Below are positions 3,343 to 31,300 of a stretch of DNA of 49,112 nucleotides, piece by piece. The stretch's first letter is position 1, and every line of letters begins with the position of its first letter. The translations under genes and the position numbers were made by a program. Under the pieces are notes generated by a model. The model was not told the origin of the DNA. It was given only the letters and a program-made list of their open reading frames with translations, and did not search any database. The stretch comes from Amoebophrya sp. A120 (Eukaryota; Protista; Dinoflagellata): NCBI GenBank assembly GCA_905178155.1, contig CAJINV010000023.1, positions 32,576 to 81,687 of the forward strand, written 5' to 3'.

Positions 3343-6300
3343 GGCTGTCAAGTTCCTGCAGAATCTCGCGCCGCTTTTCGCCCCGGCTACGTATGGCGCT
3401 CTCAAGCGTTGCACTGTTTGCCGTCACATGCTCTGTCATGCAAAATTGCCAACAGCTTCAGTGTCAGTCACCACGCGGCAGCCTTTAGTCTGTGCCGAGT
3501 TTGTAATGCGAGACGCGTAAGCCCCCCCCCCGTTCGTTGTTTTTGCTACTCCCGCATTCCAAATTCATGTGTGTGGCAACTCATGCTAACGACAAGCAAT
3601 GTAAGCGCTTGCGGGCTCCATACTGCAGAGCGTTCGGACCACACTGAGTGCACTTCCATGGCCACGCATTACATTGCGCCTACGTATTATATTGCGCCTA
3701 CATGGCGGAGTACGTCGCCCACGCAGGAGCCGGGGCAATGGGGCAATGGCTGCCGCCACGCCCTCCCCCCGCGCCGCCGCGCCCCGACGCGCAGGGGCAG
3801 GCGCGAGGCTTTCCGGCGTTCATTGTCGAACCGCGCGCGCGGGGCGCGGTGGCTTGCCAAGCCCTGGCGCGCCGGGTTTCGGGGAAATCAATGGGGCACG
3901 CAGCCCCTTCGATGTGCCGTTCATGCGCCCTCATTGCCTCGAGGTTTTGCGCCGCCTTGTGGCGCGGAAGGCGTGGCTCCTCGGATGCCTAGACACAGTG
4001 CCTGGCGCCTCGCGCCCGGCTTGGGAGCCGTGTCGTACCACGGGCGGAACATCTATTTTGTCCACTATTGTATGATTTTACAAGAAAAACCTGCAAAAAG
4101 TAACAAGTCCCGATCTAGTTCCAAGCTTCACGTGTACAGATCAAGCTATAAGCTTCTGCCTTGAATTTTACAGCCCTATACCAAATTGCCGGAAGAGCCT
4201 CTACCTATTCGAGGGGGATGATTTTTAAGGAAGTTAAAACCAGAACCACGTACCGGGTCAGTGGCTGGAGTTAAGAAGCAGGGGAAGAGAAGAAGTTGAT
4301 AGTGAGGCGTGGCAAGAGGCTGTAGTCCATGAAAAATGTTTTTGAAGGTTTAGTCAAAGTTTCAGCAGCAAGTAGTATTGATCCAAATCAAAAATGCTTA
4401 CGTACAGCTCTAGAAATGACCCTTTAAGCAAACTTCAACAAAGCCTATTATGTGAATTTAAAAAACAAAAGCAGAGAAGAGCCTTGCTATTTTTAGTGTA
4501 TTTTTAACCCCTTTACTTTGTCTCGCAATTTCCTTTTAGAGTTTGAAGTGCCCTCTTCTATCACGACTTGACAAGGAGAAACATTGTGGACAAAGGCGCA
4601 GAACCTGCTCGAATCGCGCCCTAGATCCGAACCGATGATGATCGGCCCCATTGATTCACTGCGCCGGATACGCACCTGATCAATTAGCGTTTGTTAGCTG
4701 CCGGGCTTCCTGCTGGGCTCTTGATCTTCGGGTCTTCCCGGTGGGCTCTTGCCAGGTGGGCCGTACACAATCTGTGCGTGTGCGGTTTCTCAGCGTGAAA
4801 AGTCGGGCCCGCACACTGGTCGCGCGTTCCGTCGTGAGAGTTAGAGAAATCTTCCGCTCGTGATAGACAAAGGCTAGTGCATTAAAGAACGATTGATTGA
4901 TTGATTCATTCTAGAAAAAAATGCTGGGAAACGGGCCAACTAGAACCCATACCGATCCGGGCCGGATCAGCAACATTGCGCCTCACGCTGTTCAAATTTA
5001 TGTTGTTGTCATATGATTCCGCATGTTGTGATCCGAAAACAGAATGTTGTGCCGTAATATTTGTGCGTGGCGGCTGCAAAAGTTCAAAGTCATCCTGTGC
5101 GGCTTTCATGCACAGTTGCATTTTTCGCAGATCTTTATTACTCAAACCGCAAGAGAAACTCGTTTGGGATGATTTCAAAACAAAAATGTGTTGATCGCTT
5201 CCGTGCAAGATCGTGATCGAAAATCACTGCCTCGTTCCCCTACAATTCACGATCTTGTGGCCTGGTGGATCAGATCTTATCGAGGATCCGCTGGATCTTC
5301 ACTGTTGGTTCCCGGTTCCGGAGGCAATTTTAAATGCTTTGATTGAAATGTTCTCGAAGTCCGATCGAGATCGGCCGACACAAATTGTAAATGTATTGCA
5401 TTTTTGCACGTTGAGTACTTAAGTACCAAGAACCCTCCTGAATGTAGTTTGTAAGCTGCCTCATCGTATTGACAACAGTACCAATCCCTACAAGAGTTGC
5501 ACTCACAAGTAGCAGGGCTGTGTGTCGAACTGGAGGGCCAAAAATTGTGTAGTAGTTTGTGTTGCGTAGTATTGATTATATAACGATTTCTATCTCAATC
5601 TCGGTACTGGTACAAGGTATTGCTTATTATTGTACTAACATCTATCATTTCCATTTGTTCCGCACGAAATTTATCGTAGCTTGTCAAACTATTAATTCTT
5701 CAGCTCGAAATTGGGTAATAAAAAAACAGCTGTATGAAGATGTTGATGTTACTCCTCCAAATTGGATTTTTTTTGGTTTTTACCACGTTCTCTTTTGATC
5801 GCCACTGCCCGTTGTTCGCAACCGCAGTGAGACTTACGTTCACGAGCACTGTACCTCTTTTTCGACCAGCTGAAATAAATCAACATGGGTCTTCAATTAC
5901 CCGCGAGTTCAAAGATCATGAAGTCGAGGAGATAACGAAAAGGCTGAAGAAGCTCGGGCTGGAAGACGAAAAGAAAATTGCAACCACCTCGAGGACTCCA
6001 ATGACGGTTACGCCGCATGACTCGGAGACAATGTCGCCAGTGACGGATATGGAGGTTTCGACGTCGCCTTCGTCAGGCAGTGAGGAACCACTTCTACCTG
6101 GATTTTGTTCGTCTGAAGGCCAGCGAAACTACCAAAAAGTAAAGCCATTACAACTTAGAGTGGACCTTGTCCAGCCAGGACTCAGCCAACACGCGATGTT
6201 GAAGCAGAGCTGTCCAGGAAGCGCCGCCGGCCAAGGTGCGTTGCAGCAAGGCAGGTGTTCTGGAGGAAGTTGTGTCGACGATGCGACCATGATGAATGGG

Positions 6301-6614
6301 GGGCACGTAAAGGTGGATCGCAATGTACCAATTGCTGGTGCAGGTGGTCAACACGGAGGATTTTTTGGTGTAGCCGTGACTCCTTCCGTGGTCTCCGCAG
6401 CACGATTAGAATCGACGAGGAGATCAGCAAACAAGAATCCAAAAGCAGCACCACCACGACGGGCTTACGCGGGCTCTGGAGGTACAGCACCTCCAACTTC
6501 TAGCGCTGGATCAAAGCGGCGGTCTACTGAGGATGTTGATCTTGTTGCGTCGTCGAGAGCACGACGGGGACCGCCACGACTTGGCGCAGACGATGACCAG
6601 GTGGATGATGGCCA

Positions 6615-6667
6615 GCAAGTCGGTTCCCACTCGTCCGTGCCGCCCGTAAAAAGTCCTTTTCCCGGTC
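6615..6667 (+). repeat. Direct repeat R1 (53 bp)
   Basis: gcaagtcggttcccactcgtccgtgccgcccgtaaaaagtccttttcccggtc, identical to 13155-13207. Confidence 0.95.
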
Positions 6668-6959
6668 CTGCAATACAGATTTTGTAATGCGAAAATTTGT
6701 GATGCGAAGTTTCCAAATGAAAACTTTTTGTCATGCATGAAAGGAGTACGAATCTTTCTGATGCAGAGTCTAGGCATATATAGAATCGCTTGCATGACAA
6801 GAGCCGCTCTTCCTGGGGGCTTTTGCAATACAAACCTTTGCTATTCACGATTGAAAACCTGTGATGCTGATAGATGCAAGAGGGCGAATGTTTCATTTGG
6901 AAAGGTTTGCAATACAAGTGCTCCCAAGTTCGGGGGTGGGGGCATTTTTCATTGCAATA
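6668..6959. mobile_element. Family E introner truncated on the left by repeat R1
   Basis: Reverse-complement homologue of 18068-18377; right end ggggtgggggcatttttcattgcaata; left TIR missing. Confidence 0.85.
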
Positions 6960-8300
6960 AGAGCTGTGCGGAGGGTCGTGGCAAGATTACTTCGCGAGTT
7001 ACGGGGGCGACGTACTTACTTCATATTGTGGTCGACTTTTTCATTTCCGATGACATAAATTTTGTCATGTCAACCAAAAAGGCACCGACTGCCCTCAGAC
7101 CTCCGACGTCATGTCAACCGGTACAAGTGTAGTTTCTGAAAAGCGAGCCCTCACCACTTCTATTTCTTTGATGCCATTGTTCCAGATCATTTCTGCGAGG
7201 TGAACCATGCAACGTTTATTTGTTGATGTACACTCAGGTCGCCATTCCCGGGTCGCCCGCGAATGCGGTGTTTGCACAAAACCAGAAGCTTGCCCAGGTG
7301 CGGAAGGCCCGGTTTGATTTTCGGGGCAAACGCGTCAGCATGATCAACAACGCGTTGCTAGGCGGTACTGGTAGTATCGGAACAAACCTCCACTCCGGTA
7401 GCTCAGACAACAGCGCATCTGCAAGCAGGTCGACTGACAATGCGCCGGTGTCCAAGCAGAATGGGCTAGCGCGGCAGAGTTTGGTAACCAATGCGTTGGT
7501 GAATTTCAACCGGGGCGGCAGGGGAGGCGGCCCAGGGGGCCATAATTCTGGGTACAGCGAGGAGGATTGGACGCAGGCAGGCAGTAGAACCGGCGCGTCG
7601 GGACAAGATCAGGATTTGAACAGCATGCTGCGGCTGCACAACATGCTGAAAAAACAGGAGGAAGAGATGGAAGAGGAGCGGAATTATTTCCTAAAACAGC
7701 TGAAGGTCGAAACCGCCAGCTTGCAGGACTTGAAAACGCTCTTGAAAAAGTACTACACAACAACTACGAGAAGTACTTCTTCTACTACTAGCACAACGGC
7801 AGGATCAGGCTCTACTTCGCTGGGAAAGAATTATGGTGCGAATCATCCTGGACCCGGTCCTCAACAATTCGGTGCCTCGCCGAACAAAGCGAATACCGGT
7901 ACAGCTGCTTCTTTTCATCCATTATCAAATGCAAAAGTGTCTGGGTCTGGAAAGGTTGAACCTGTATTGCGTGTCCAGCATTCCTGGAAATTCTGTATTG
8001 CATAAAAGCATCAAAAGCGCCACAGTTTCGTCATGAAAAGTCGCAGTTTGTAATTCGCGCTAAGCATCAGAAAGCGCTTGGAAAATTTGTCATGCTGCAC
8101 TGCACTTAAAGGCACATTAAATCATGACCATTCAGCATTACAGGTTTCCAGCCCCAGGCATATTTGCATTCCATATCCATCCGGAGGGAGCAATGGCGCC
8201 AATAGTTGTACTTCTTCCTCTGCAAAAACGTCGGGGGCAGGGGCGGGCGGGGGTCCTGCGTCTTTTGGGCGGCGCATCACACTGCGAACGGTAGCAGAAT
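6960..8300 (+). pseudogene. Captured internal fragment of an unrelated spliced gene (includes a short coiled-coil segment)
   Basis: ORF 7220-8005 (exon from ~7238 after ctcag) continues in frame into ORF 8078 once introner 7923-8175 is removed; no 5' end present. Confidence 0.55.
7923..8175. mobile_element. Family A introner
   Basis: tatcaaatgcaaaagtgtctgggtctgg...ccaggcatatttgcattccata; TSD TCCAT/TCCAT. Confidence 0.9.
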
Positions 8301-8414
8301 TGCTGGTGATGTTTGGCGTTTTATGCAACAGAAAAACTACCCGACGCCGACCATCTTGTTCACGCATAGTGCACAGAAATAATTTAATTTTAAGCAGGGA
8401 ATATATCACATAAG

Positions 8415-8456
8415 GCAAGTCGGTTCCCACTCGTCCGTGCCGCCCGTAAAAAGTCC
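8415..8456 (+). repeat. Direct repeat R2 (41-42 bp)
   Basis: Identical to the first 42 nt of R1. Confidence 0.95.
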
Positions 8457-8642
8457 AGCTCCAGCCCGGCCGAGGACATCAGCTGCACTATGGACGAGCA
8501 AGGGATCGACAATGATCGAAGCGGAACGGGTGAAAACGAACTGGATCCGTTTTTGGAAAACACCAACGCTGTTTTGTACAGGATTGCGACGGACCTGGAC
8601 ATAGATTTGAGCTTCGAACTAAACCTTGATAGGTACTACTAG
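8457..8642 (+). pseudogene. Captured 3' end of another gene (...ELDPFLENTNAVLYRIATDLDIDLSFELNLDRYY*)
   Basis: Open, protein-like frame starting directly at the repeat junction and ending at TAG 8640-8642, followed by intergenic-like DNA. Confidence 0.45.
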
Positions 8643-9496
8643 GTTCTACTGCTAAACATAATAAGTCCTGCCGCGCCCTCGCATTTCTACGACCTCTGTA
8701 AACAGATTGCGTGATGAAATATGAGACGAGCATCGGCACAACTTCTGATGTTTTTTCTCCTGAGTGAGTACTTGCAACAGTCAATCAATACATTCACGAT
8801 TTTTGATAACCATCGGACATTTTTTCAAACACATGAATTACAACAAAAAGAAAAGTTGTCTACTACTAGATGTAGCAAGGACTTGACAGGCCGGAGGCGT
8901 TTTGTTCTTCACCTACCTAAGCGAGCAGTTCAGTGCAAAAGTGTATAGTCCTCAATTGCTGCGTACTGTTTCAAGTACAAAAGCACAAGCAGCTTGACAG
9001 AAATAAATCGTGGGAGGGAGGGTTCGTGCAGGGGCTAGGTCGTTGTGGTGACTGAAGTCGGTCGTGAATTCGTTGGAAGATTGCTCGATTGCTGTAAGTA
9101 GGTGTCGTGAAAATAATGCAAGGAGTAGTACTAAAGTATAATAGCAGTATCATACTCGTCATGCTCGTGATCGTGACGACGGAGAAGCACTCTTTTCTAT
9201 ACCAACAGCGTCTCAAACAAAATTTCGTACAACGTGTGGACAACACAGCGTCTTGTAGTTCGTCGTAAACATCGTTGAAAGGAGAGCGGAGCCCTGTACA
9301 CAGCATTCTGCTCTTGCAAACGTTATCGTTGAAGGCATGAAAATGATATTTCTTGTAGTCATTGATTTACTTGGACTTGGTCTTATTTCCTGATGTGCGT
9401 GGCAAGCTTATCCGCATTATTTTTCAAAATTGGCACGAACACTACCACTAGAGTTTTTTTTCGACACTTCTTGTCTTGACAAAAGCCAGCCTCAAA

Positions 9497-9796
9497 ATGG
9501 TTGTGTGGACGATCTCTACTTCGAAGCTGGTTCCGGTGGTTCTACTGTCGGGCGCGGCCCTCGTGTTCGGCGAGATGCACACCCCCTCGGCTCCTCCGGC
9601 TCAAGCGGAAGAAGCGGGCTCCGTCGAGAACTCCCCCTCCCCGCGTTCTTTCGCGCAAACGAAGAAGGTTTCCACGGGTGAGGATCCGCCACAGCCTGTG
9701 TTTTCGGCGAACGTGACGCTCGCACTGCAGGTGGTGAATGATCCGCTGACGCCGATTGCCAGCGTCCTGGAAATCTTCAAGGCGTCCCGGAATGTG
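9497..9796 (+). CDS. First exon of a putative signal-peptide protein (within captured fragment 2)
   Basis: ATG 9497, MVVWTISTSKLVPVVLLSGAALVFG; GT donor at 9797 followed by an AT-rich intron ending tttgtag. Confidence 0.5.
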
Positions 9797-10169
9797 GTAC
9801 TTACTATAGTAGACGCTATCTCTATAACTAATATAGTAATAAAAATCTTCGTAAAAATAACTACTTTGTAGTACAACTACGAAGCGGCCGTCGCCGCTAA
9901 TTTGGTCTTTGCGCTTCACTTGTAATCGCTCCTTTGCATCAGCATGTCATCGCTTCACAAATAATTTTCCTCGCAGCTACTTTTGCGTGCGGGTGCGGAC
10001 GCGGATGGGAGTGGCATGGTGTCCAATCAGGAGACGAAGGACTGGTGTGCGAAAAGCTGTTCGAATATGGAAACGTCAGGTGGGAAATTAATCAGCAAAA
10101 AGGAAATATGAATAATAGTTCGTCATGCATAGCAAGAATCGATAGCGGTTGGAGCTGAACCAATCGATA

Positions 10170-10210
10170 GCAAGTCGGTTCCCACTCGTCCGTGCCGCCC
10201 GTAAAAAGTC
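10170..10210 (+). repeat. Direct repeat R3 (41 bp)
   Basis: Identical to the first 41 nt of R1. Confidence 0.95.
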
Positions 10211-10341
10211 ATGCGAAAAGCGCAACACGAAGCCGGCGCGGAAATATTTCTCACGCTTGGCTGCGCATTACAGACGAGAAATCACTATTCACAACTCAGC
10301 ATTACAAGTTTCCAGACCCAGATCCATATTTGCATTTGATA
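10211..10341. mobile_element. Family A introner truncated on the left by repeat R3
   Basis: Only the right part remains, ending tttccagacccagatccatatttgcatttgata. Confidence 0.8.
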
Positions 10342-10474
10342 GAGCCGGTGCAAGCACAAGTCCAAGCGAAACAGCTCCTTGCGCAGCTTGTCCGCGTGCG
10401 AGACAGCCATGCTCTTGAACATTCGCCGAAATTTTTCCTTGGCAGAAAGCTTTTTCCCGGTTAATTGGCTGAAG

Positions 10475-10783
10475 TATTACAATGAAAAATGCCCCCACCT
10501 CAGAAATTGGCAGCATTTGCATTGCTAACCTTTCCAATACAAACTTTCCCCGTCTTGCATATATCAGCATCACAAATTTTCCATGCTGAATAGCGTAAAT
10601 TTGTGTTGCAAAGGAGCCCAACAGCAGCCGGATCTGTCAGGCAGAAGATACCTTGCGCACCTAGATTCTGCATCAGAAAGACTCGTAGTCCCTTCATGCA
10701 TAGACAAAAAGTTTTTCATTTGAAAACCTTATGCATGAGAAACTTTTGCAAATTCCGGGGTGGGGGCATTTTTCAGTGCAATA
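10475..10783. mobile_element. Family E introner
   Basis: tattacaatgaaaaatgcccccacc...ggtgggggcatttttcagtgcaata; TSD TGAAG/TGAAA. Confidence 0.9.
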
Positions 10784-11143
10784 TGAAACGGTTGGGGTCC
10801 AGGCGCGCGTCGACGTGGTCTCGGGACCGTTCCACCCCGGAATCGCTGCTGTTCTTCTGCGTTACGCCAAACTGCTCCAGCTCGGAGATGAGGGAGTCGG
10901 TGGGCAGGATGCCCAGGGTCAGATACATGGACCCGACATCGTAACTGAACGCTTGCTTCCCGCGACTCGCGGCCTGGGCCGCAGTGGCGGCCTCGACGCT
11001 GCCCTGGGGCACGGCAATCTGTGCGGCTGCGGACGAGGCCCCCGAGGGAGGCGGATTGTGATAAATACCCGCCCCGGAAGAAAGGGTCGACGGGCGGGTG
11101 CCCGTGGCCGCGGTGGACGAAAGATTCGTACTTCGTGACGGGA

Positions 11144-11418
11144 TGTCAAGTGGAAAAATGTCCGGGTCTGGAAGATTGGAGGACTTGTCATGCACATTTT
11201 GCATGATCCACGATATGTGTGACGTATGCGCTAGCTGCATCACAGATTTTGTGAGGGCTTCCTGATGTTGCCTATACCGCATGACAAATGTTGCCCTTTC
11301 CGCGTGTACAAAAACTGGACTCCTCTTGCGGCTTACGCTGCAATACAGATTTTTCTAGAATCCAAAGACAGCATAACAAGTCTCATCCTTTCAGACCCAG
11401 ACATTTTTGCAGTGCATA
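11144..11418. mobile_element. Family A introner (variant left end TGT)
   Basis: tgtcaagtggaaaaatgtccgggtctggaa...cagacccagacatttttgcagtgcata; TSD CGGGA/CGGGA. Confidence 0.85.
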
Positions 11419-11468
11419 CGGGACGGCAGAGGAGGCGGGGTTGATGCTGCTGCTCGTAGTAGTTTCGG

Positions 11469-11616
11469 TATCCTGTGCAAAAGTATCGCACTCGTATTGC
11501 AGTCATGCATTACAAATCTTGCTCTTAAGGCAAATCCGCATTACACATTTTATTTCTCATGCTGAGCAGGAAATTTGTAATGCATTTATACGAGTACGAT
11601 ACTTTTGCAGTTCATA
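11469..11616. mobile_element. Family B introner
   Basis: tatcctgtgcaaaagtatcgcactcg...cgagtacgatacttttgcagttcata; TSD TTCGG/TACGG. Confidence 0.9.
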
Positions 11617-11682
11617 TACGGAAGATTTTATCCTGGCACCTGCCGTGCTGGTGTTTGCCATCGAGGTGCTTGTGCTTGCTGG

Positions 11683-11906
11683 TATCCTGAGAAAAAAGTG
11701 TTACAGTTAAGTACACACTCTCATGCAAGACAACAAGCAAGACAGACAATCTCTGTCATGCAGGAAACGCTTGCCAGCCTCATTCTATCGTCCGTGTTAT
11801 TTTCCCTTATAGTCTGCGCATTAGAAGTTTCCTTCTCCATGCAGAGCAAATTTGTGATGCTGATATTCCAACAAATGTGTAACTGTAACACTTTTTTCCT
11901 GCGATA
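11683..11906. mobile_element. Family H introner
   Basis: tatcctgagaaaaaagtgttacagtta...taactgtaacacttttttcctgcgata; TSD GCTGG/GCTGG. Confidence 0.85.
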
Positions 11907-12445
11907 GCTGGCTGCTGGACAACATTATTAGTACTGATAAACCGGTCAGACTCAGAACGTCTACTTGTAGTTGTTTCACCGGCGACGTTTGCTGCAGCCT
12001 GCGGTGTGGGTGTGGCGGTCGCGTCCTCTCGAGTGGATTCCAGGTCGTCGTTGAAGGAAACCCGACTCGAAGCCGTCGCTCAACCTTTCGTCGACTTCGC
12101 CACTGGAGATGAAGAAGATCCTGGTGAAGATGCAGCTTTAGTAGAAGCTAGTACAACCGTGTTTACCGCCCCAGCATTTTTTGTGGGTCCGCCAGCAGGA
12201 GAGGATGAGCTTTTATTTGGTGGACTACTTGCTCTAGGCGGCTCCCGATCTCCTGCTTGTTCCGCGCTTTTGTGGTCTTGTTGGGCAGTAGTAGGTGTAC
12301 CCCACGCGGTTCTACTACTACTACTACTTCCGGGTGGTCTTGCTTTCGGACTGAACTTGCTGCGATCTTCAGTACCGGAGGTTTCCTTGCTCTCCTTGCT
12401 TGCCACACCCATCAGACCCGACTGCGGGGTGAAGGGCTGCTGCTG

Positions 12446-12783
12446 TATCAAAACGAAACTGTATCCCCCCTACCCATACTGAAATGGAGACTTTGACTTG
12501 TGTAGCATAAATGGCGACCACGAGTCTTGTTCTTCACGTTGTCATGCTAGAAGGCAAAAGATGCGGACTGTCATGGTGGCTGGCGTGGGAAATCAACCTT
12601 GCATCTTGAGCATGACAGGAGACAACTGGAAGGAAGAAACAGCATGACAAACTGCTTGCAGGTCTTCAGGCCACAGCTGCGTCTCTCCGCCTTCTGCCAA
12701 GAATGCCCGTCGATTTGTGTACTCAAATACAGCATCACAGATTTCGTTTTCGACATGGGGAGGGGGGATTTTTCCTCACAGTA
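12446..12783. mobile_element. Degenerate family C-like introner
   Basis: tatc...ccccctaccc / ggggaggggggatttttcctcacagta; TSD TGCTG/AGCTG; joins two minus-strand ORFs. Confidence 0.7.
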
Positions 12784-13154
12784 AGCTGCTCCTCTTGATT
12801 TAATCTTCCACCAGTTGTGGTCTTACTCTCCTCCTCTGCGGCTCGACCTGGAGGAACAGCGGCTGAAGACAACACGGACGGCGCAAAAACTCCAGGCAGA
12901 TCAACGTTGCTGGTGTCGTCCGGTGAGTGAAACACCTCCTTCATGGGCGACACCGGGGGCGAAGTTTTCACCTTCATCTTGTTGCTGCAGCTGTTCGTTG
13001 TTTTCTTCAACTTTCGACGCAAAACGTTGAGCGTCTACTTGTTACAACTTCTTCTACACCGGAAGTTCTTGCTCTTGTCGGCGTTTTTAGGTCGTGAACT
13101 AGCTCTGGCGTTCCTTCTAGAGTTCCAGTTCTACGTCTGCCTACTTACTACGTT

Positions 13155-13207
13155 GCAAGTCGGTTCCCACTCGTCCGTGCCGCCCGTAAAAAGTCCTTTT
13201 CCCGGTC
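13155..13207 (+). repeat. Direct repeat R4 (53 bp)
   Basis: Identical to 6615-6667. Confidence 0.95.
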
Positions 13208-13683
13208 TGCCCGCGAGCTCGCCGCCGAACGAAAAGGGGCTGCACAGTGGTGATGTTGACCACTTAGTCTCCTCTGACGTTCATCCCGCCTCGCATAGGG
13301 ATAGGCAGACCACCCCCGAGGTGGAGGATCAACGCAGCTCCCCAATTATGAAGCCGACCTCCAAGCGTGCGTTTGCTTGTCCCGGTAGCAGCTGCCCCGA
13401 AGATGTCCCTCGTGCACCGAAGACGACTCCCGAACAAAAGAAGCTTCCCGACCTGACTGCGGACGAGGCAGCTGAGTGCGGCCTTCTGCAACAGACCGTG
13501 GTGGACGATGATGCGCTGCTGGTGCGGGAAGAAGACGCTCGTCAACGTCGCGCCGGCGGGGATCGTCGGACGAGTTTCTCTCGCTCGTCTCACAAGGATC
13601 ATCGTCCGGTCGCGGTTCCGAGAGTCGACCTTCAGGATCGTTTCTCTGCAAGCTTAGCGGCGAAGTTGGCAACTAGTCTGCTA

Positions 13684-13909
13684 TATCCTGTGCAAAAGTA
13701 TCGTACTCGTATTCGCAATCATGCATTACAAATCCTAAATTAGAGATGAATTTATATGCGAAGACACGGAGTGGGGCCCAATGAAAAAAAAAAAAAAATC
13801 ATGCATTACAAATCTTGTTCTTAAGGTAAATCAGCATTACAAATTTTATTTGTCATGCTGAGGAAATTTGTAATGCATTTATACGAGTACGATACTTTTG
13901 CAATGCATA
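13684..13909. mobile_element. Family B introner carrying a nested poly(A)-tailed insertion
   Basis: TSD TGCTA/TGCTA; element absent from the paralogous site at 15302. Confidence 0.95.
13735..13796 (+). mobile_element. Short retroposed fragment (poly-A tail, 18-bp TSD)
   Basis: aatcatgcattacaaatc duplicated at 13717-13734 and 13797-13814; A15 run at the 3' end. Confidence 0.75.
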
Positions 13910-16900
13910 TGCTACAGGACGTAGAGGAAAAGAGAACTCGCGACGGACCGGAGGACCAACGGGCCGGAGGACTTTCGTGTGGAAGTTCGTGCGAAGAGGA
14001 CGGCAAACGAAGAAAAAGATGACTTTCGGCGGAGGCTAGAGATCGATAGAACAACAATGGGTTGTATGTTCGGCCGATCGATGGTAAAAATAAGTAAGTA
14101 CTTGTTCGAGACCACCCGCCGAAGTGAGTCCTCTATATAAACTATCGTGCCGCGTATGCCGTCTATGAATGCCGGTGCTGAGCAGATAAACGCGGAAAAA
14201 ATGAAAAGCACTATTAAGACCTGATGTGTTGAAATTTCAAATAAAGACTGAACTACGTTCATGATCAATTATCGCTCCCTTTGCCAACCGAGAGCCGCGA
14301 GCGCGCGGTCCGCAAGAGTAAAATATTTTTACATACGGATCTCCCGCTATGCTCGCTGCACTGGGTTGAGACTAACGATTACGCTGTAGCAGGAAGTTTA
14401 AGTTTAAGATTAAGTAGTTTTGGAAAAATTATTGTCTCACGACAGGAACTACAAACGGAAATGTTTTCCGCCAGCGCCTCCTCACAAAGATTTATTAGTT
14501 TCTTCGTAGACATGCTGCACTATGTACGGACAGTACCAGTAGAGTAAAAAAAAAAGACAGCACTACAAAGTCCAAATCGTATCTATATTTATTTTCCTGT
14601 ATAATTTGTTCGTCACTACTGTGCTGCCCGCACCTGCAGCCGCAGTCCCGCCGCCAAGGATGAATGAGATTGCTGAAACATGATTTTTTCAACCTGTAGA
14701 AGTTGAAAAACCACGTGAAGCACGATCGGATCTCAAAGCAGAGCACCGCGAGCAGAAAATTTTACCGATACGTAAAACAGCTGGAGACATGAAAGAACCA
14801 CAACGAGAGCGAGAAGAGGGGTACAACTTTGCGATCGTAGACACCGTGTTACAACGAGAATGCTGCAACTGTATGATTTTTCTACGGAAAGGAAAGCCTG
14901 GAAACCGAAACTTGTCATCCCATGATTGGTGATTCACGACGAGGACCTACTCCGTGAGCAGCACTATCTCCGGCGTAGGGCAGGACATCACAAATGTTCC
15001 TTGATTCGCTTGGTCAAAGGTGTCAAAGCTATGTATTGCAGCTCCACTGCCACGAGTCCCATCATAGTGACAAGAAGCAGGACAAAGCTCAGTCTCGTAG
15101 AAGATCTTCACTTGACGTCTTGTGGCCCGCGGCGGGTGAACCAAAAACAGATCTTGTCTTCATGCGCTGGACAAAGAATTGCTCGAGAAGTACTGAGTAG
15201 CGGCGGGTGCTCAAGTTTTTTGTTTTGACCGGTCGCGGTTCCGACAGTCGACCTTCAGGAGCGTTTCTCCTCAAGCTTAGCGGCGAAGTTGGCAACTAGT
15301 CTGCTACAGGACGTAGAGGAAAAGAGAACCCGCGACGGACCGGAGGACCAACGGGCCGGAGGACTTATTTCTTGTGGAAGTTCGTGCGAAGAGGACGGCA
15401 AACGAAGAAATAGATAATTTCCATCGCCTGAGCGATGGTAAAAATACTTCGAGATTGCCGCTGAAGAGCTTCGTACGTATGTGGCTTATAAGAGCCAGCC
15501 TTCGGCATCGGCAGTTGGAGCAAAAGAAACACAATTTACATGAAATTTTAGGGAAAGTTGTTTACAGAACGTGGATGATCAATTTGCCAATCGACAGCAG
15601 CGAGCGCGCGGTCCGTAGTAATGCAGAAGTACTGAGGTATTTTTATCACGGCTCTCCCGCTAGTAACCTCGCTGCGGTAGATTGAGACCAACAATTATGT
15701 GCTGTAGCAGGAAGTTTAAGTTTAAGATTTGAAAGAGTTTAAAGTTAAACACGGGAACGGGATTCGTTTTCCGCAACATCACAAAGATTTTCTTCCAGCC
15801 GTGGGGCATGGACAGTAGAGTAAAAAAAACAAAAGAAAACGACGAACTCGTATTGATGTATAATTTCTATATCGTCAGTAGTTTCTTGCCTGCAGCTGTA
15901 GCCGCGCTAAGGTTAAGTGAGATTGTTGAGACCACATAAAAATTTCGATCTGTAGGTGGGAAACTTGTTGTACAGCCATCAGAGAAAGCCCTCAACAGTA
16001 GCAGCAGAGGATGTTAACTGAGTAGTAAAAGTACTTATGATGTAGTTCCAACCGGAGTGATCAACGAGAAGTGTGGTACTTCTCGAATGTAGGCGTCAAG
16101 TCTAAAACTGCATGATTCTGCGAAAGCAAGAAAGCGTAATCCTTTGGTTGGTAATTTACGAAGACCTACGTCTTGCGCCCTGCTGCTGCTTCTGCTTCTG
16201 CTGCAGGGCAGGACAACGCGAAAAATGTTCGTTGCTTCACATGCTCGGAGGTGTCAACTCTACTGCAGTTCCACTGCTATGTATAAGTTTAAGTCGCGTG
16301 ATAAAGACCATTGCAACCGAGTTGCATGATAGCGACAAGAAGCAGGACCACAAAGTTCAGGTTCGTAGAAGATCTTCACTTGTGATTCGCCGGGTCAACT
16401 ACAAAAAAGAGATCTTGTCTTCATACGAGCCCTGCTACTGTGCTCTATTCAAACTTCCCTTTGGGATTTTACTTTCTACATACGCTGGACAAAGAATTGC
16501 TCGAGAAGTACTGAGTAGCGGCGGGTGCTCAAGTTTTTTGTTTTGACAAAACAAATTGTTGTTGTGGAAGATCTTGAATGAGGACCACCTGCGCCCTGTA
16601 GCGATACGGAGCTACTTCATCTAAGAAGCGTCACCATAGATGGAATAAGACTGCTGTGAAGATGCGGATAACATCAGATGAAAAAGAAGACACAAGGGCG
16701 CAGCCTCACAACGGTTCTCAGAACAAGAAGATCCACTGCGAGGACCGCGACGATTTTTTTGCTCCGTACTGGCTGGTATCCTTTCATCCTCATAGAAGGT
16801 GATAAAGGACTTCTACATACCTACCTCAGGCCAGCGACAAACTGATCGAACTTGAAGCTCCGGAAGATTCTTGAGTGAAGTGCAACTTTCATTTAGCAAG

Positions 16901-17026
16901 GTCCCTCACTAGTAGTGCACTTCAGCTTGTTCTCTAGAAGAAACGGTAGCAGTACTAGAGACGTGCTCTTACAGAAACTTCTCAAAAACAAGCACATAAA
17001 ATCCTGTGAAGAACTAAATTAGCAGA

Positions 17027-20000
17027 ATGACGTCAGTCTTCCGAGGTGTGGATCTTGGGGCGCACCATTCCGTTTGCGCTTCCGCGCCCGTGAACGAGCC
17101 CCACGTCGTCAGCGTTGATGTGAACGACCTTGCCAACCGATCGACGCCCAGCGTATTCTTTGTTTTGTTTGTCTGTAATGCGTAGAAGCTAGTACACCGA
17201 CATGTGTCATGCTAAAACCCAACATCACATCATGTACTTAAGTATCTGTAAGCTAGTACACGGCGTCATGGATCTGTAATGCGGAGAAGCTAGCACACCG
17301 AGTACAAACATGAGTCAACATGCTAAAACCCAACACAAACACCAGGTCGTATCCCTGGAGAACCGGCAGCGGGTGATCGGCGAAGCCGCTGAGTCTCTCG
17401 TCAGCAAGAACCCCAAGCAGACCTTATCCTGAGGAAAAACGCCCCCACCGGATAAGTAGTCAAGATGAGAAATCTGCTACACAAGTCTACAAGCTTAGGC
17501 TGTTGCGCATGACAAGTTCGGCTTTTCGTAGTGCAATCTTGTGCAGTAGCTCGCTCAGAAGCATCACAAACCTGGCTTACTATGCTGCTTGGAGCATTAC
17601 AAATCCCAAAACACGACTAGAAATCGCTTCGCGTGGGGCTCCGCATGAGAAACATTCTCGAGCATGTATTTTTGCATGACAGCTTTCATCGGGTGGGGCC
17701 GTTTTTCCATCTGATAGACCTACACCCACCTCGCCTCGGCGGTTTTTGAAGGAAAGGAAAGCTGTATGAGAGCAGTGCACAACCCCCCCTCCCCTTCATT
17801 TGAAGGGCATTATAAGCAGCAACACAAGTGCTGGCATAAATGCAGCTTTTGCATGACAAATTTGCGACCGATTCCAGTGCTGTTTCGGCTTCTGAAACCT
17901 GTCATGCAAGAAGTGCCAAAGAGAATAGGGCGGATTTGGTATTTTGCATGACAAACGAGGGGGAGAGGGAGTTGTGCATTGTCATAAGCTGTGTGGAGCG
18001 GTATGGCACGTTTTGGAGCACAGAAAACATCGAGTTCGACAACGAAGTGATCGAGAGCGTGCCCCTCTATGACAATGACAAATGCCCCCACGACCCCCGA
18101 ATCGTCGGGAGCATTTGTATTGCAAACCTTCCCAAATGAAACATTCGCCCTCTTGCATCTATCAGCATCATAGACGTCCAATCGTGAATAGCAAAAATTT
18201 GTATTGCAAAAGATCCCAGCAAGAGCGGCGCTTGTCATGCAAGTTATGCGATATACGCCTAGAATCTGCATTAGAAAGATTCATACTCCTTTCATGCACG
18301 ACAAAAAGTTTTCATTTGAAAACTTCGCATCAGAAATTCTTGCAACTTTGGGGGTGGGGGCATTTTTCACTGTAATACCCTCGGAAATTTGTTCGGCCTT
18401 TATTTGAAGAAGCTGCTCAGCCTGAGGCATGTGAAGGTATAAATAGATAGTACCTTAGCCACCGTCTTTGTGTAACCTTGCTGTTCACATCATACAGATC
18501 GAAGATGTAAGTACTGTGTAGCAGTTGTTACCAATACCATCAAGACAAACCTGATTTGTATTCACGCTTGTTCTGCAGCATCATGACAAACTTTGCACAA
18601 AAATAAAACACTAGGGCGCCACGGCCGGTCACGAGGAAGTTGTCCTGGCGGTCCCGGATTTTTTTGACACGACAGGAGACGACAAAAACTCCGCGACGCA
18701 AACCTTTGCCGATGCGTTGAAGCTGATCCCGGAGACCCTCCTCCCCAAGGAGAAAAGCAACCTGAAGCTTTGTTACCACAGCGAGGCGCTGGCGACGCAG
18801 TGGTTGGTGAAGTACGAAAAGAGGCTTGAGGAGGAGCTAGCTCTCTGCAACAAAAACTCGGGAGATGAGCCGGAGAAAATCGAACAAAACGATGCACAGT
18901 TTCTCTTGCTGATTGATGTCGGTTTTTCGCAGACCACCGCGACTTTAGTGGAGATAAGGAAAGAAGCAGAAAACACCCAAGGCGAAGTAGAGGAGAATAA
19001 CTCGTACAACAAGATGGAAGTGGAGCAAGACAGCTCTCCGGAAAAGAAAAGCAACGTATGAATTGCAAAAGTATCGTACTCGTATAAATGCATTACAAAT
19101 TTCCCCCGCATGAGAAATAAAATTTGTAATGCAGATTTGCCTTGGGAACAAGATTTGTAATGCAAGACTTGCATTTATACGAATGCGATACTTTTGCACA
19201 GGATACAACGCTGAAACGAACGAAAATAAATCGGACCCGACCAAAGAGCGTATCGTGGCGAAAATCGTGAAAAAGCAGGCAATATCAAATGTAAAAGTGT
19301 CTGGGTCTGGAAGAGTGCATGTTTGTCATGCTTGTCTGGCATGACTCTTAAATCTGTCATGCACGTTACCCAAGAGCTCCATTTTTCTGTGATGCAGAAG
19401 CGCAGTTTGTCATGCGGAATTGGCAACACCTAGAAGCTCAGAAACTTGTCATGATGAGCCAGCACTTGTGGCCTCATCATGAGACGCCACCCAGCATCAC
19501 AAGTCTCCAGACCCAGACATTTTTACATTTGATAGGCAACGAAAAACCTTTCCGTCTACAACTTCATCGAGCAGCTGACAAAGCGCGGTCTAGAGCACGC
19601 GGAACAAAAGTACAAGCAGAGTTACATATCAATTGCAAAAGCATTGTACTACGTATGAATAGCATTACAAATTTTCTCAGCATGATGAGAAATGGAATGT
19701 GTAATGCTGATTTAGCTTAAGAAAGAGATTTGTAATGCATGATTGCAAAATACGAGCACGATGCTTTTGCACTGCATATTACAGTATCAGCAGCAAGAAG
19801 GGGTTCAAATTAAAACAAGCGATGACCAAGGCGTTGAAAGTATCCTGAGTAAAAACTACGTCCCCGCACCATAGTCAAGATGGTGATTTTGCTACACAAA
19901 TCAACAAGTTTTGGCTGTTTCGCATAACAAGTTTAGACTCGTAGTGTAGTCGTGCTGTTTGAGGTAGTGCAGCCGCATGACAAATCGACTACTTTATCCT

Positions 20001-22659
20001 GATTCCAGCATCACAAACTTCCAGATAGCATGAGAAAATGTTTCGCATGGGGATCCGCATGAGAAACATTTCGAGCATGACAGTTTAGCATGACAACTAT
20101 GGGGTGGGGACGTTTTTACATAGGATAGAAAGAGCTCTCCATGCTCCCAGAAGCCAGCGTAAACCTGGAGTGTTGGCTGGACGACGACGTCGACTTCCAC
20201 TTGGACCTGAAACGCGCCGATTTGGAACACGCACTAGAAAAGGAGCTTAAATTACTGGAAGAACTGGTAAAAGACGTCGCAGCACCGGCTGTAAAAATTG
20301 CAGGCGGAGATGAAGTAGATGTTGGCAACAACGACATTGCTTCTTCATCAAACAAGAAGCTCCACGTGGAAATTGTCGGTGGTGGTGTCCGGATCCCTAT
20401 CGTCGCTAGCACCATCGAGTCTGCGGTGTCAGCAGCAACTGGCGCTACCACGACCCTCGGCCGGGGCCTTGACGGGAGTTCTGCGGTCGCGACCGGCGCT
20501 TGTCTACGCGCGGGGCCGTTGGGGAAGAAGTTTCTACTGGACACAACCCTCGACAGCGCGAAGATCTTCGGGATCAGTGCAACATCTGCCGACGAAGAAA
20601 CGATAAGGGCGTTGGAAGCGAAGATGGAAGGAGTCGAGAACAAAGAAACGGCGAGACTCGAAGCGCTGAACAAATTGGAAGCGTATCTGTTCGAGGGGAA
20701 GAGGATTTTGCAGGATTCGAAGGAAAATACCCTGTTCACAAATCCAAACGCGGGTGAAGACGCGAGTGAGGAAGAGAAAAACGATATCAAATGTAAAAGT
20801 GTCTGGGTCTGGAAGGATGCAACTTGTCATGCTGTTTGTCGACTCTAAAAAAAAATTGTAGTGCATGACCAGCAAAAGGGGCACAATTTGTGCTACACGG
20901 ACAGGGCATTTCTCATGCGGAAGGTGCATCAGGAAGCCCTCTAAAAGTCTGCGATGCTAGACCATGCATTACAGGCATCATGGGTCTAAGAAATATGCAT
21001 GACAAATCTCGCATTCTTCCAGTTCCAGACCCAGACATTTTTGCATTTGATAAACGACAAGGGTAAGCAATTGCTGAAAGAATTCGACGAATTAGAGCTG
21101 TGGTTTCTGGACAATGTTCAGGACGAGGATATCTCGTTAGAGCAGTACGAGGAAAAGTTCAGTCAGATAAAGCACAAATTCGAGAAATCCGGACAGCAGT
21201 ATTTTGAGAAAAAGAAGCAAGAGCAGGAAAAGCTCGAGGCGGAACTGGCAGTTCTCAACGAGCAGAGGAAGCTCGAGCAAGACTCGGCCGACAAGGAGGA
21301 CCACGACAGCCGAAAGCTTCCTATGAACCGCAAAAGCATCGCACTCGTCGTAGTAATTGCAAGCATGCGTCACGAATCTTTTTCTTAAGGTAAATCCGCA
21401 TTTACAAATTTTACTATCCATGCTGAGGAAATTTGTAATGCATCTAATATACGAGGAGTGCGATACTTTTGCAATTCATACTTCCGAACAAGGAACGACT
21501 CCGGATGGCGGAGAAGCAACGGGTTGAGGGGAACGAGCTGTTTAAGGCTGGGGTCTACCAGGAAGCCATCCAGCGGTACCAGAAAGCGCACGTGAACCTG
21601 TCGAAGTTGTTCGATTTGAGTCCGGAAGACACGGAAGAAAAAGACAAAATCGGCTTGTCCTGCTACCTGAACACCGCGATGTGCTATTTGAAGGGGGTAG
21701 AATTTTGATTTCTGTGGATGGTTTAGAAATCGCGTCACAATCAAATTAAGTTTGTTTAGCATTTTTACAAAGGAAATTCAAATTTGTTACGCCGATTTAC
21801 AACTCTAAAAATTGATGAGATGTGTATATCGCATGATTAACTAAACAGGTCGACCAGCAGGCTTCCAAGGACGTGCAGCTGCAGCTTTGTCAGAAAGTCG
21901 TATCAAACGCAAATATGTCTCAGACATCGGGAAGGACGCGAACTTGTGATGCGTGTTGCGGATCATACAAAAATCTGTGTTGATGCATGGCTTGCAAAAG
22001 TAGGTGCGCACTTCTGGCCATGCTGACCGGACATTTCTCATGCAGCACAGGCATGACGACCTCCAAGGGGCTCCAGAACCTGTGATCATGTATAGGCCCT
22101 GCATCACAGACTTGGCGGAGCTTGGAAGAACTACATGACAAATCTCAGAATCTTGTTCGAGACGCAGACATGTTTGCATATGCATAAGTCGTTCGCCAGT
22201 GCGATTCCGCGCTTGACATTGACGGAAAGAACGTCAAGGCTCTGTTTCGAAAGGCCACCGCGTTGGAGAAGCTTGGCGACATTGACTCGGCGAGAAAGTG
22301 CTCGAAACTGGGACTCAGTATCGACGAATCAAACGCGGAATTTACGAAACTTGATAAGAAGCTGGAGAGAGTATGACAGTGCACAACCCCTCCTCCCGCC
22401 CATCATTTGTATAGCATGAACAGCAATACGAATTACTACAAGCATCAACAAAAATGCCGGATCTGCATGACAAAGTTGCACTGGATTTTAGTGCTGTTTC
22501 GGCTACCAGAACTTGTCATGCAAACAGTGCCACAGGGCAAAGGGTGGACTTGGCATTTTGCATGACAAACAAGGGGAAGGGGGTTGTGCACTGTCATAGA
22601 GAGCACAAGCGGAGCAGAAGAAAAAGGCACAAAAGATGTACGGAAAAATGTTTGGTTGA
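17027..22659 (+). CDS. Hsp110/Hsp70-like nucleotide-binding domain protein fused to a C-terminal FKBP/Cyp40-type TPR domain; 11 introners plus GT-AG introns at 17153-17345, 18437-18614 (possibly split by a micro-exon) and 21697-21848
   Basis: Reconstructed motifs: GVDLG, VNDLANRSTPSVVSL, RVIGEAA, VVLAVPDFF, LLIDVGFSQT, ASVNLECWLDDDVDF, VEIVGGGVRIP, LDGSSAVATGACL, NKLEAYL; TPR region EGNELFKAGVYQEAIQRY, YLNTAMCYLK, NVKALFRKATA, ending KMYGKMFG*. The frame stays open after every excision. Confidence 0.9.
17425..17716. mobile_element. Family C introner
   Basis: tatcctgaggaaaaacgcccccacc...ggtggggccgtttttccatctgata; TSD GACCT/GACCT. Confidence 0.95.
17765..17986. mobile_element. Family D introner
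   Basis: tatgagagcagtgcacaacccccc...ggagttgtgcattgtcata; TSD AGCTG/AGCTG. Confidence 0.95.
18068..18377. mobile_element. Family E introner
   Basis: tatgacaatgacaaatgccccca...tgggggcatttttcactgtaata; TSD CCCTC/CCCTC. Confidence 0.95.
19057..19205. mobile_element. Family B introner
   Basis: tatgaattgcaaaagtatcg...cgatacttttgcacaggata; TSD CAACG/CAACG. Confidence 0.95.
19283..19534. mobile_element. Family A introner
   Basis: tatcaaatgtaaaagtgtctgggtctgga...tccagacccagacatttttacatttgata; TSD GGCAA/GGCAA. Confidence 0.95.
19627..19778. mobile_element. Family B introner
   Basis: tatcaattgcaaaagcattg...cgatgcttttgcactgcata; TSD TTACA/TTACA. Confidence 0.95.
19841..20127. mobile_element. Family C introner
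   Basis: tatcctgagtaaaaactacgtcccc...ggggacgtttttacataggata; TSD GAAAG/GAAAG. Confidence 0.95.
20785..21052. mobile_element. Family A introner
   Basis: Family A TIRs; TSD AACGA/AACGA. Confidence 0.95.
21322..21480. mobile_element. Family B introner
   Basis: Family B TIRs; TSD CTTCC/CTTCC. Confidence 0.95.
21901..22186. mobile_element. Diverged family A introner
   Basis: tatcaaacgcaaatatgtct...agacatgtttgcatatgcata; TSD AGTCG/AGTCG. Confidence 0.9.
22372..22598. mobile_element. Family D introner
   Basis: tatgacagtgcacaacccc...ggggttgtgcactgtcata; TSD GAGAG/GAGAG. Confidence 0.95.
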
Positions 22660-28300: not shown

Positions 28301-31300
28301 CCACCTACGCAAAAGAGCCAAGACCCCAACCCGGTCCCAGAGCCAGAACCACCGCTGCAGCATCTTCGTGGTCGTGACGAAACTCGGACCGAATCCAGAG
28401 ACTCGCGACGCCGCGCATCGTATCAAATGCAAATATGCTCTGGGTCTGGAAGAGTGCTAGTTTGTCATGCTTGTCTGGCATGACTTTAGAATCTGTGATG
28501 CATGAGCAGGAGAAGGGGCTCTTGCCTGTCATGCAAAAACGCAGTTTGTCATGCGCAGGAAGAAACACACTGCAGCGCGAAAACTTGTCATGCTGGGCTG
28601 CATATTGCAGCGCGCCCACAATTCGTAGATTTGCATCACAAGTTTCCAGACCCAGAGGACATATTTGCAATGCATACATCGCGCCGCGCCGACGGCGCGG
28701 GACGGGACGAACGAGGGAAGACAAGGGGCCGCAGTCGTAGAAGTGCCTCGCGTCATATGCAATTCAAAAGTTGTATCGAATTCGAAAGTACTCATTTTGG
28801 TTTGCATAGTTTTAGGAACAAAAATGAAGGGAAGCACAAAAATGGATTTTGCAATGCCACACTGGGAAGATTCGACAGGAAATCAGTTTCAGAATCAGAT
28901 GTCGCACCGTCTGTCATGCATCAATGCAATGAGTATTAAATGTATGCCCGGGCAGCAGCAGGCTAGCGAGCCTGTGAGCCTAGGCTGAGGATGGTCGGGC
29001 GGTATTTTATGCCCGTGTCCGCCCTCAGCCCTTNGCTGAGGATGGTCGGGCGGTATTTTATGCCCGTGTCCGCCCTCAGCCCTTTAGTTTACGGTAGCCA
29101 GGACTTGAGAAGATTAGTCAGGACAACCCACCGAATTTCGGGGTGGTATTTGTTCGCCTTCTCTTGTTCCCAGGGAGTAACGCCCCTGCCGTTGGTAGTA
29201 AGTCTCGTTTGGCCCGCTTTGCGGATGATCGTTTGGCCCGCTTTGCGGATGATTGGCCCGCTTTGCGGATGATTATTTGGCCCGCTTTGCGGATGATTAT
29301 TGGCCCGCTTTGCGGATGATTATTTGGCCCGCTTTGCGGATGATTGTTTGGCCCGCTTTGCGGATGATTGTTTGGCCCGCTTTGCGGATGATTTGGCTTC
29401 CGCTTGTCGGAAATTTTGGCTTCCGCTTGTCGGAAATTTTGGCTTCCGCTTGTCGGAAATTTTGGCTTTCCGCTTGTCGGAAAATTTGGCTTCCGCTTGT
29501 CGGAAATTTTGGCTTCCGCTTGTCGGAAAATTTGGCTTCCGCTTGTCGGAAATTTTGGCTCCGGCCTTTCGCAAGTTCTGGCTTTCGCTTGTCCGAAGGT
29601 CTAGCTTGGTCCGCTGCGCGGGAATTTTGGATTCCGTAGGTCGGAATATTTCTCGTTGCCAGCTATTTATGCGGGATAGGTGTTGTTTGGCCGTTCTGTC
29701 CTCGGGACAAGGAACGGCGATCGGTCTCGCTTTGCGATGGGAGGAGGGGTCGTTTGGCACTGGCGGTTCGAACCCGTTACCCTTGCGAACTTTCTCCCTG
29801 ACTAGAGCGCTGGACTTCGTTGGATCTGTTGTGAGATAAATATCCGGACTTCCCCTCCCATCGCTATGCGAGACCGAGACTCCGTTTGGTTTGCTATGGG
29901 GCTATGCTAAGCCTGGGCGATCGTGGTTTTTCGTTCTACTTGGCGGACCCTTCTCATAGGCCCGCGTCTTAGTCTATCGGCCCATTGTTCAGCCCGTCGT
30001 CGTTCGTTGCTACGCCTTCATCGATGGGGCGCACCGGTTTCCCAAATTCATCTACTGGTCGCAAGCGCCGCAGCGGGTTCTTTGGGATGCTTCGGCGTAT
30101 CCGGCCTCCGCCGGTGGGTCAGGTGCTCCATCTCCCTGGGCGCCTCGACGACGTGGTGGGGGACTGCTCCCACCGAGCGGCCATCCATTGGGTGGCCCGT
30201 CTGCGGTAACAGCATAAAATTAGCACCAAAAATACGAAGATGCTTTTGCAAAGGATAGGTCGCGGCCACGACTGCAAGCCGCGAAACTACAGAAACAACG
30301 ACCGTGAGGTTGGTGGCACCAGCCCAAACCGGATATTAACTTATCAAGTGTAAAAGTGTCTGGGTCTGGAAACTTGTGATGCTGGGGGGCGTCTCATGAT
30401 GAGGCCACAAATGCTGGCTCAGCATGACAAGTTTCTGAGCTTCTAGGTGTTGCCTATTCTGCATGACAAACTGCGCTCCTGCATCAGAGAAAAATGGCGC
30501 TCTTGGGTAACGTGCGTGACAGATTTAAGAGTCATGCCAGACAAGCATGACAAACATGCATTCTTCCAGACCCAGACACTTTTGCATTTGATATAACTCC
30601 GCTCGGAAGAACTACGAAGAGCGTGCATCGTCGACGGGCGTCGAGTATCCTGTGCAAAAGTATCGTACTCGTATTGCAATCATGCATTACAAATCGTTTT
30701 CTTAAGGTAAATCCGCACTACAAACTTTATTTCTCATGCTGAGGAAATTTGTAATGCCTCCATACGAGTGCGATGCTTTTGCAATGCATATCGAGCAATA
30801 GGAATCCGAGGAACTACACTGCTAGAAATGCGAGCAGGAGAGCTCCTGCGAGCAGGAGAAATACCCGAGGACGCGGCGACAAATCGCTCGGAGGAAGCAA
30901 AATGCGGCGTCGAGACCGTTCTGCGTCGAAACCACGCAGCCCCCGACGGTATCAAACAAAAAAAGTTCGTCACGAAGATCACTCATGCGCATTCTTGCAT
31001 ATATACGAAGCTGTCTTTCATGCGTAGAAATGCATCACAATTCTCGAATGTCACACACGACAATCTCTCGTCTGTTTGTGTAATAAAATGCAAGAAGAAG
31101 CTCCGACGCTAGAAAAATTTGTGATGCAAAGCCTGCAACTGTAGTGATTTTGACGAGCCTTTTTCTATTTCTTTCCATAGAGGGCGTCGAGACCGTAGTG
31201 CGTCGAAACAAGGCTGCTCCCGGGGACCACGCCTGGACAGAGGTAAATCCACGCGCGGACCACGACGCGAGGCCGGGCGTACACCAGTCCACCGCGGCCA

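Follow-up and report, generated by a model that had tools for sequence, protein, structure and literature searches.

During spacer acquisition in CRISPR (clustered regularly interspaced short palindromic repeats) arrays, each addition made by Cas1-Cas2 would duplicate the repeat, and complex insertions that join several donors occur, among other settings, in yeast deficient in Dna2. Here, a locus of Amoebophrya sp. A120 that resembles both in part is described. Within a 49,112-nucleotide stretch of contig CAJINV010000023.1 (positions 32,576 to 81,687; the whole of this stretch is called the window), an exon of one host gene is split by three genomic pieces lying between four copies of a short segment of that exon. 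Analysis of the sequence and of public read data confirmed that this locus is real and unusual. It is best read as the scar of a recent repair, in the manner of break-repair insertions that duplicate their target, with three pieces of another haplotype frozen between the target copies.

Published work is cited here from excerpts of each paper. Paired nicks with 43-nt overhangs give tandem duplications, in consecutive rounds because the target survives (PMC8355091), and they raise the frequency of both duplications and templated insertions (PMC11081867). Such breaks resemble the present locus in that a target of ∼40-50 bases is duplicated, rounds can be repeated, and overhangs favour insertion. 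In the excerpts, however, the breaks are engineered and mammalian, whereas this locus is natural, its kilobase-sized pieces alternate strictly with target copies, and no nicking agent is known for it. Overhangs also raise single- and multi-donor insertions, with up to six donors (bioRxiv 10.1101/2022.09.30.509517). Like the present array, these complex insertions combine several unrelated pieces from different chromosomes through short microhomologies; in the excerpt of that preprint the donors are the cell's own loci and no target copy lies between them, whereas the pieces described here differ from the resident copies.

The CRE, SLACS, and CZAR retrotransposons of trypanosomatids, which lack long terminal repeats (non-LTR), share with the array a fixed insertion position and a target duplication of variable size (PMC12278014). 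Unlike them, this locus has no reverse transcriptase, endonuclease, or poly(A), and its inserts are unrelated genomic DNA. For a site-specific element of the CRE/R2 type, the fixed position and variable duplication were thus found, whereas a reverse transcriptase/endonuclease open reading frame (ORF), a common 3′ end, and a poly(A) tract were not. Nor does the array hold an RNA-copied insert, spliced and in the sense orientation: introns and intergenic DNA are retained, and the third piece (f3) is antisense. Pack-type DNA transposons and Helitrons flank captured gene pieces with common termini or terminal inverted repeats and duplicate at most about 11 bp of the target, or nothing; here the duplication is 41-53 bp. 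The att core that integration by a tyrosine recombinase would require at the donor was not seen at the resident homologues, whose flanks differ, and no additional neighbour of the repeat was found.

CRISPR arrays and this locus have the same repeat-insert-repeat layout. A preceding sequence-only reading of the window had drawn that comparison and had noted the absence of Cas genes. The formal layout stands, and no cas1/cas2 or casposase Pfam family was detected among the 23 window ORFs scanned. The likeness goes no further: in place of constant repeats and short spacers, there are repeats of 41, 42, 53, and 53 bp and inserts of 1.7-2.9 kb, which are 50-100 times longer than spacers; no acquisition genes were found among these ORFs, and no sign of processing, interference, or other use was seen. 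One locus, with no enzyme and no function, falls short of a system, and nothing shows a CRISPR-like one.

The introners of Amoebophrya carry inverted repeats of 8-20 nt and direct repeats of 3-5 nt (PMC7789003, PMC12130899). Short repeated introns resembling those described for this genus (PMC7789003) are plentiful across the window, and its protein matches fall in the genus Amoebophrya. Introners are abundant in the window, the pieces, and the host gene, but at this locus they are passengers, two of them cut by fragment ends. The architecture was not found in a search of the titles and abstract openings of open-licence papers, which is not proof of its absence.

Architecture of the Array

The components of the array and its host gene, in window coordinates, are as follows.

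5734..6614, + strand: host gene 5′ part, an ORF, covered by a contig of run X1 (5000-6643); its first 301 residues are matched by public model P0003
6615..6667, + strand: repeat copy 1, 53 bp of host exon sequence, target duplication
6668..8414, + strand: fragment f1, 1747 bp; introner cut at its 5′ side (6668-∼6959), exon 6964-7014, GT-AG intron 7015-7236, exon 7237-7920, introner ∼7921-8176, then the last exon and 3′ tail
8415..8456, + strand: repeat copy 2, 41-42 bp; sequence in common with the resident homologue of f2 begins at base 42
8457..10169, + strand: fragment f2, 1713 bp; the end of gene A, ∼60 codons with the stop (8457-8642), then intergenic DNA and the 5′ part of gene B (ATG 9497, intron 9796-9975)
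10170..10210, + strand: repeat copy 3, 41 bp; a 10-bp word across its left junction recurs 24 bp upstream (possible templated filler)
10211..13154, − strand: fragment f3, 2944 bp; from a gene on the minus strand, including several introners, one of them truncated by the cut at 10211, and a stop at 12080-12082
13155..13207, + strand: repeat copy 4, 53 bp, running on into the host 3′ part
13208..14022, + strand: host gene 3′ part, with introner 13684-13911 (5-bp direct repeat TGCTA) and a stop at 14020-14022, covered by an X1 contig (13178-13678)

Exact direct repeats starting at 6615, 8415, 10170, and 13155 with a single left boundary had been reported from the sequence alone, and comparison of the copies bears this out. 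Copies 1 and 4 are identical over all 53 bp, and the left boundary falls on the same base in all four; one further A, directly left of copies 1 and 3, is common to positions 6614 and 10169. Copy 2, put at 41-42 bp in that reading, can be taken as 41 bp plus one base common with the donor. The three segments, put at about 1.75, 1.7, and 2.9 kb, have the lengths listed above and are mutually unrelated. As had been claimed, they are genomic rather than cDNA: introns and introners are retained, intergenic DNA is included, and the genes lie on both strands. Two of them begin in mid-introner, the left ends of f1 (6668) and f3 (10211) both lying inside introner-family sequence. The predicted rejoining of the flanks through one repeat copy also holds: joined across the insert, they form one frame through ...DDGQQVGSHSSVPPVKSPFPGLPASSPPNEK..., and with introner 13684-13911 removed, the host frame comprises 294 + 176 + 35, or about 505, codons.

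No second array of like form is present within the 49-kb window, where most of the other exact repeats of at least 25 bp spaced 0.3-12 kb apart are copies of the introner family or part of a tandem duplication next to the array. The six fragment ends show no common termini, terminal inverted repeats, or poly(A) above background. Rfam gave no matches in 5000-18000, and folding of the target region, performed without a shuffle control, revealed nothing distinctive. An 11-bp inverted match between the two ends of f2 was dismissed as not significant (4% per pair, with 15 pairs).

Read Support for the Array

The read data consisted of Logan contigs. Of 11 runs listed, eight contained the stretch, from two studies; four were compared over 5000-15500 and three over 8185-10250. 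In the best DNA run, X1, which may be the source of the window's assembly and hence not independent, single-copy depth is ∼44x. No run containing the stretch is recorded as RNA, the RNA nature of some being a guess, and RNA run X9, for which raw reads were used, gave a single read on 5000-15500.

Host flanks and three inner junctions were recovered at single-copy depth. One X1 contig (5000-6643, 44.6x, 0 differences) leads from the host 5′ part to an end within repeat copy 1, and another (13178-13678, 44.3x, 0 differences) starts in copy 4 and runs into the host 3′ part. Further X1 contigs cross from f1 into repeat copy 2 (8314-8444, 42.4x), from copy 2 into f2 (8427-8485, 48.1x), and from f2 into copy 3 (8611-10198, 43.8x). 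The junction of copy 3 with f3 is covered by an X6 contig (10181-10250), and that of copy 1 with f1 can be deduced in X1 from a branch behind an 11-base extension.

The 42-bp repeat core forms a contig of depth 150 in X1. Among the 14 X1 records on 8185-10250, six have loose ends; those beside the repeat are the window's own junctions (host-left, f3 end, and 11-base extension), and the remaining three come from the resident counterparts of f1 and f2. Given these loose ends and the core depth of 150x, the repeat exists in about four copies and in no other context: its left neighbours number four only, all at this locus. The possibility, foreseen from the sequence alone, that the repeat is the end of a high-copy dispersed element found in many contexts was therefore rejected. 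The first 22 bases of the repeat are likewise absent from metagenome and viral contig collections.

Contigs built from 31-mers do not phase repeats of 41-53 bp, and no record spans two repeats. These facts, together with the possible dependence of X1 on the window's own source, leave room for an error of order or phase, in which the host gene would be intact and the repeat-bounded pieces would lie on a circle or be permuted. Such an error is nevertheless extremely unlikely. The displayed junctions are single-copy and the repeat has no neighbour outside the locus, so that pieces lie between repeat copies in any arrangement. Furthermore, ordinary short reads span 53 bp.

Low-depth contigs of runs guessed to be RNA cross repeat 2 into f2 (8415-8815), cover 9328-10199, and run from the f3 end (370 bases before 13155) into repeat 4. 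Together with the splicing of gene B, described below, they make parts of the array appear to be transcribed. No splice joint skipping the whole insert was seen among the 15 joints listed of 566 on 5000-15500, a set dominated by introners.

Source of the Captured Pieces

One indication of where the pieces came from is the pattern of divergence between f3 and its resident homologue, encoding protein P0002, which is found in X3 contigs at 303x and 333x and continues past both f3 ends. Relative to this expressed resident copy, 11 bases differ in exon 10784-11137 and at least 3 in exon 10346-10473. Over the 159 codons concerned, f3 differs from P0002 by 2 replacements and an in-frame 3-bp indel, both replacements coinciding with listed nucleotide differences. 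At least 12 silent changes thus accompany 2 replacement changes, with a silent divergence (pS) of 0.08-0.10 and a replacement divergence (pN) of 0.006. For a neutrally decaying copy of the resident gene, even with zero resident replacements, such a pattern would have P = 0.0006-0.003. Depths of 78.6x and 64.9x compare with 80 and 70 expected for two copies, and because they fit two copies there is no third, exact donor of f3. The low pN limits change since capture to about 0.6% or less (95% bound 1.8-1.9%), which fits four identical repeats.

Fragment f2 also departs from the resident genome. Its first part, 8456-8640, has a depth of 85.7x; another copy exists that differs by 4 substitutions and a 3-bp indel. 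The remainder, 8641-10169, is single-copy within one unbranched contig (8611-10198), and no other record at ≥92% was found for it in the contigs compared. Gene B is spliced (joint 9795>9976 in X3 and X6) and is 69% identical to its nearest relative, P0001. The possibility that f2 consists of two pieces joined at 8640 was dropped: homology with the resident flank extends beyond 8640, 19 of 27 bases aligning at 8648, the best of 98,170 window positions. Since this flank homology continues past the gene A stop and gene B is 69% identical to P0001, f2 is one piece of a diverged homologous locus. By eye, gene B begins with a hydrophobic, signal-peptide-like stretch (9497-9795), and it possibly encodes a fast-evolving secreted protein.

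For f1, region 7106-7807 has a depth of 115-120x, its exonic part being present in 2-3 genome copies, and one contig, 6968-7256, is single-copy. Similarity to the nearest homologue ends at 8366, with 3 differences in 53 bp (read from the loose end behind that position).

Divergence from resident genes is apparent in the sequences of f2 and f3, with a silent bias in f3, and suggested for f1. On this comparison, the pieces are not copies of resident genes and probably derive from another functional haplotype. The earlier expectation that intact donors of the same sequence reside in the genome was not upheld: the f3 resident differs mostly at silent sites, and the 1.5-kb part of f2 is without a match at ≥92%.

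Several observations tell against this assignment. When only the listed coding differences of f3 are counted, leaving out three in the probable untranslated region, the bias is weaker (13 of 18 silent, P = 0.012). Divergence along f3 is uneven, with 2 differences in the 539 bp of exon 11907-12445, one of them the stop within f3, versus 21 in 712 bp of its neighbours (P = 0.0005); gene conversion could also give such unevenness. In addition, the four differences in gene A of f2 are clustered and mostly not silent.

Functional paralogues of the same genome, since lost, would give the same silent bias with no other haplotype involved. Paralogues are indeed common here: the f1 exons occur in 2-3 copies, the 69% relative of gene B carries a source label in common with P0002 and P0003, and next to the array there is an older tandem duplication. 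We nonetheless consider this origin unlikely. P0001, P0002, and the window model P0003 lie on separate contigs of 9.24, 4.82, and 0.81 Mb, and with the two placeable residents on different contigs, separate losses or excisions would be needed. Depth, moreover, leaves no exact donor for f3 or for the 8641-10169 part of f2.

If another haplotype was the source, the pieces may stem from alleles of the cell itself, which outcrossing later separated from the array, or from a relative that shared the cell as a mate or through co-infection; the data would fit both alike. Excerpts of earlier work report sexual spores and meiotic genes in Amoebophrya, a zygote not having been seen (bioRxiv 10.1101/2025.04.10.648098), and cryptic species that occur together and infect the same hosts, with little or no gene flow between them (PMC7018713).

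Possible Mechanisms of Capture

The model that we favour, to which we assign about an even chance of being correct, is that a staggered break re-formed three times at one regenerated site and that each repair captured DNA and duplicated the target. One boundary of the break would have been fixed; each time, fill-in and end joining would have doubled the overhang sequence and trapped a free piece of DNA in the break. The cutting agent would act in trans, and capture would have been recent. Fragment f1 would have come first, with a 53-bp duplication, followed by f2 and f3 in either order with 41-bp duplications, because insertion into a repeat copy gives a left copy no longer than the right one and the observed lengths run 53-41(42)-41-53. 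The sequence-only reading had proposed the same succession at a fixed boundary, and the repeat lengths fit it.

The junctions resemble those of break-repair insertions, in which unrelated genomic pieces meet with overlaps of 0-4 bases. Compared with the resident homologues, overlap is 1 base between repeat copy 2 and f2 and 1 base between f3 and copy 4 (from the loose end behind 13142). The 10-base word across the junction of f2 with copy 3 recurs 24 bp upstream, a length reached at 2 of 600 control positions; as filler at one of six junctions, its chance is about 2% after counting all six, and it is a weak sign of templated end joining.

The model also faces difficulties. Three exact re-cuts, each with a kilobase-sized capture, need an agent that was not seen: no nuclease, transposase, or reverse transcriptase Pfam family was detected among the 23 window ORFs, where introner-broken ORFs could escape, and the sole curated-level match was Hsp70-like. 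Its precedents, as far as the excerpts go, are engineered breaks in mammalian cells with no target copy between donors.

No site-specific enzyme would be needed if a single repair event had involved repeated template switching, as in complex insertion by polymerase theta or a process like microhomology-mediated break-induced replication. A 3′ end would copy the first donor, return to the tip of the other overhang, copy 41 bases to the junction of single- and double-stranded DNA, and leave for the second donor. The fixed left boundary is then a DNA end, both inner copies stop at 41-42 bases, the divergence of f2 and f3 (and, as suggested, f1) from the residents fits one episode, and the f2-repeat 3 junction holds templated-looking filler. 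Up to six donors per insertion have been reported in the preprint cited above (bioRxiv 10.1101/2022.09.30.509517). Against this, the 3′ end must have come back three times to an identical base on an overlap of 0-1 base, copy 1 has 12 extra bases to be explained, and filler is seen at only one of six junctions. Excursions of 1.7-2.9 kb are also long for polymerase theta. We hold a single switching event to be possible, while leaning away from it.

A dedicated, trans-acting, site-specific machine adding gene-sized pieces, either an integrase or a retroelement with a restriction-like endonuclease acting on non-cognate templates, appears distinctly unlikely. A fixed cut with a long, variable duplication is typical of CRE/SLACS-type elements (PMC12278014), excerpts of two papers document non-LTR elements in the genus (PMC7789003, PMC12130899), and the duplications of 41-42 and 53 bp differ by about one helical turn. 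The pieces, however, hold no element sequence, poly(A), or common end; RNA templates are disfavoured by their retained introns and intergenic DNA and by the antisense f3. An exon of a single-copy protein gene, rather than a multicopy RNA gene, is the target, and the 49 kb contain no second array. Excised pieces from Spo11 double cuts were set aside, since pieces ligated at random would not alternate strictly with target copies that all point the same way.

A broader proposal, that a site-specific, repeat-regenerating process files gene-sized DNA of related haplotypes (from mates or from co-infecting or hyperparasitic relatives) into growing arrays, is in our judgement very unlikely to be correct.

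Host Gene and Other Features of the Window

The host gene 5′ part is single-copy and encodes a low-complexity protein for which no Pfam family was found. No homologue was detected at E ≤ 0.01; matches otherwise comprised the public model of the gene itself and, weakly, a repeat protein unrelated to it (P0004), and none was found in metagenomes. Public model P0003 (622 aa, 5734-8413) joins the host 5′ part to f1 exons and lacks the host 3′ part; it is probably an annotation chimera.

Downstream, 13606-15228 and 15229-16546 form a tandem duplication of the host gene 3′ end and the DNA that follows. The ends of the units are 95-97% alike and the middle about 60-85%, similarity falling near the host stop codon, and the coding differences are not silent-biased. 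The duplication may be old, its ends having undergone conversion, or it may be another trace left by a diverged homologue. The second unit (15229-16546) lacks introner 13684-13911, so that a filled site and an empty one (15302-15311), with the 5-bp direct repeat TGCTA, stand side by side. The introner itself holds an inner insertion with an A-run near 13735-13796.

Elsewhere, an Hsp70-like gene broken by many introners occupies 17047-∼21700, with a Pfam HSP70 match on 20129-20845 and, by eye, a TPR-like tail. Tandem repeats were noted at 28984-29630 (23-24 bp), 34570-34840 (105-109 bp), and 46008-46241 (11 bp). The single N of the window, at 29034 between two 50-bp copies, likely marks an assembly gap.

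Implications

Even as a repair scar, the locus is an unusually clean natural record, in which a target of ∼50 bases has been re-duplicated around three kilobase-sized pieces. If the pieces preserve alleles no longer in the genome, as their divergence suggests, they would document outcrossing or DNA exchange at the level of sequence, in parasites for which the case for sex has so far come from spore types and gene expression. Many strains are reported in culture (PMC7018713, from an excerpt), which makes the number and source of pieces directly testable. Should more such arrays exist, a nicking or integrating activity as yet unknown would be at work. Were the capture process real, it would be a eukaryotic counterpart of spacer acquisition, operating on non-self DNA of the organism's own kind.

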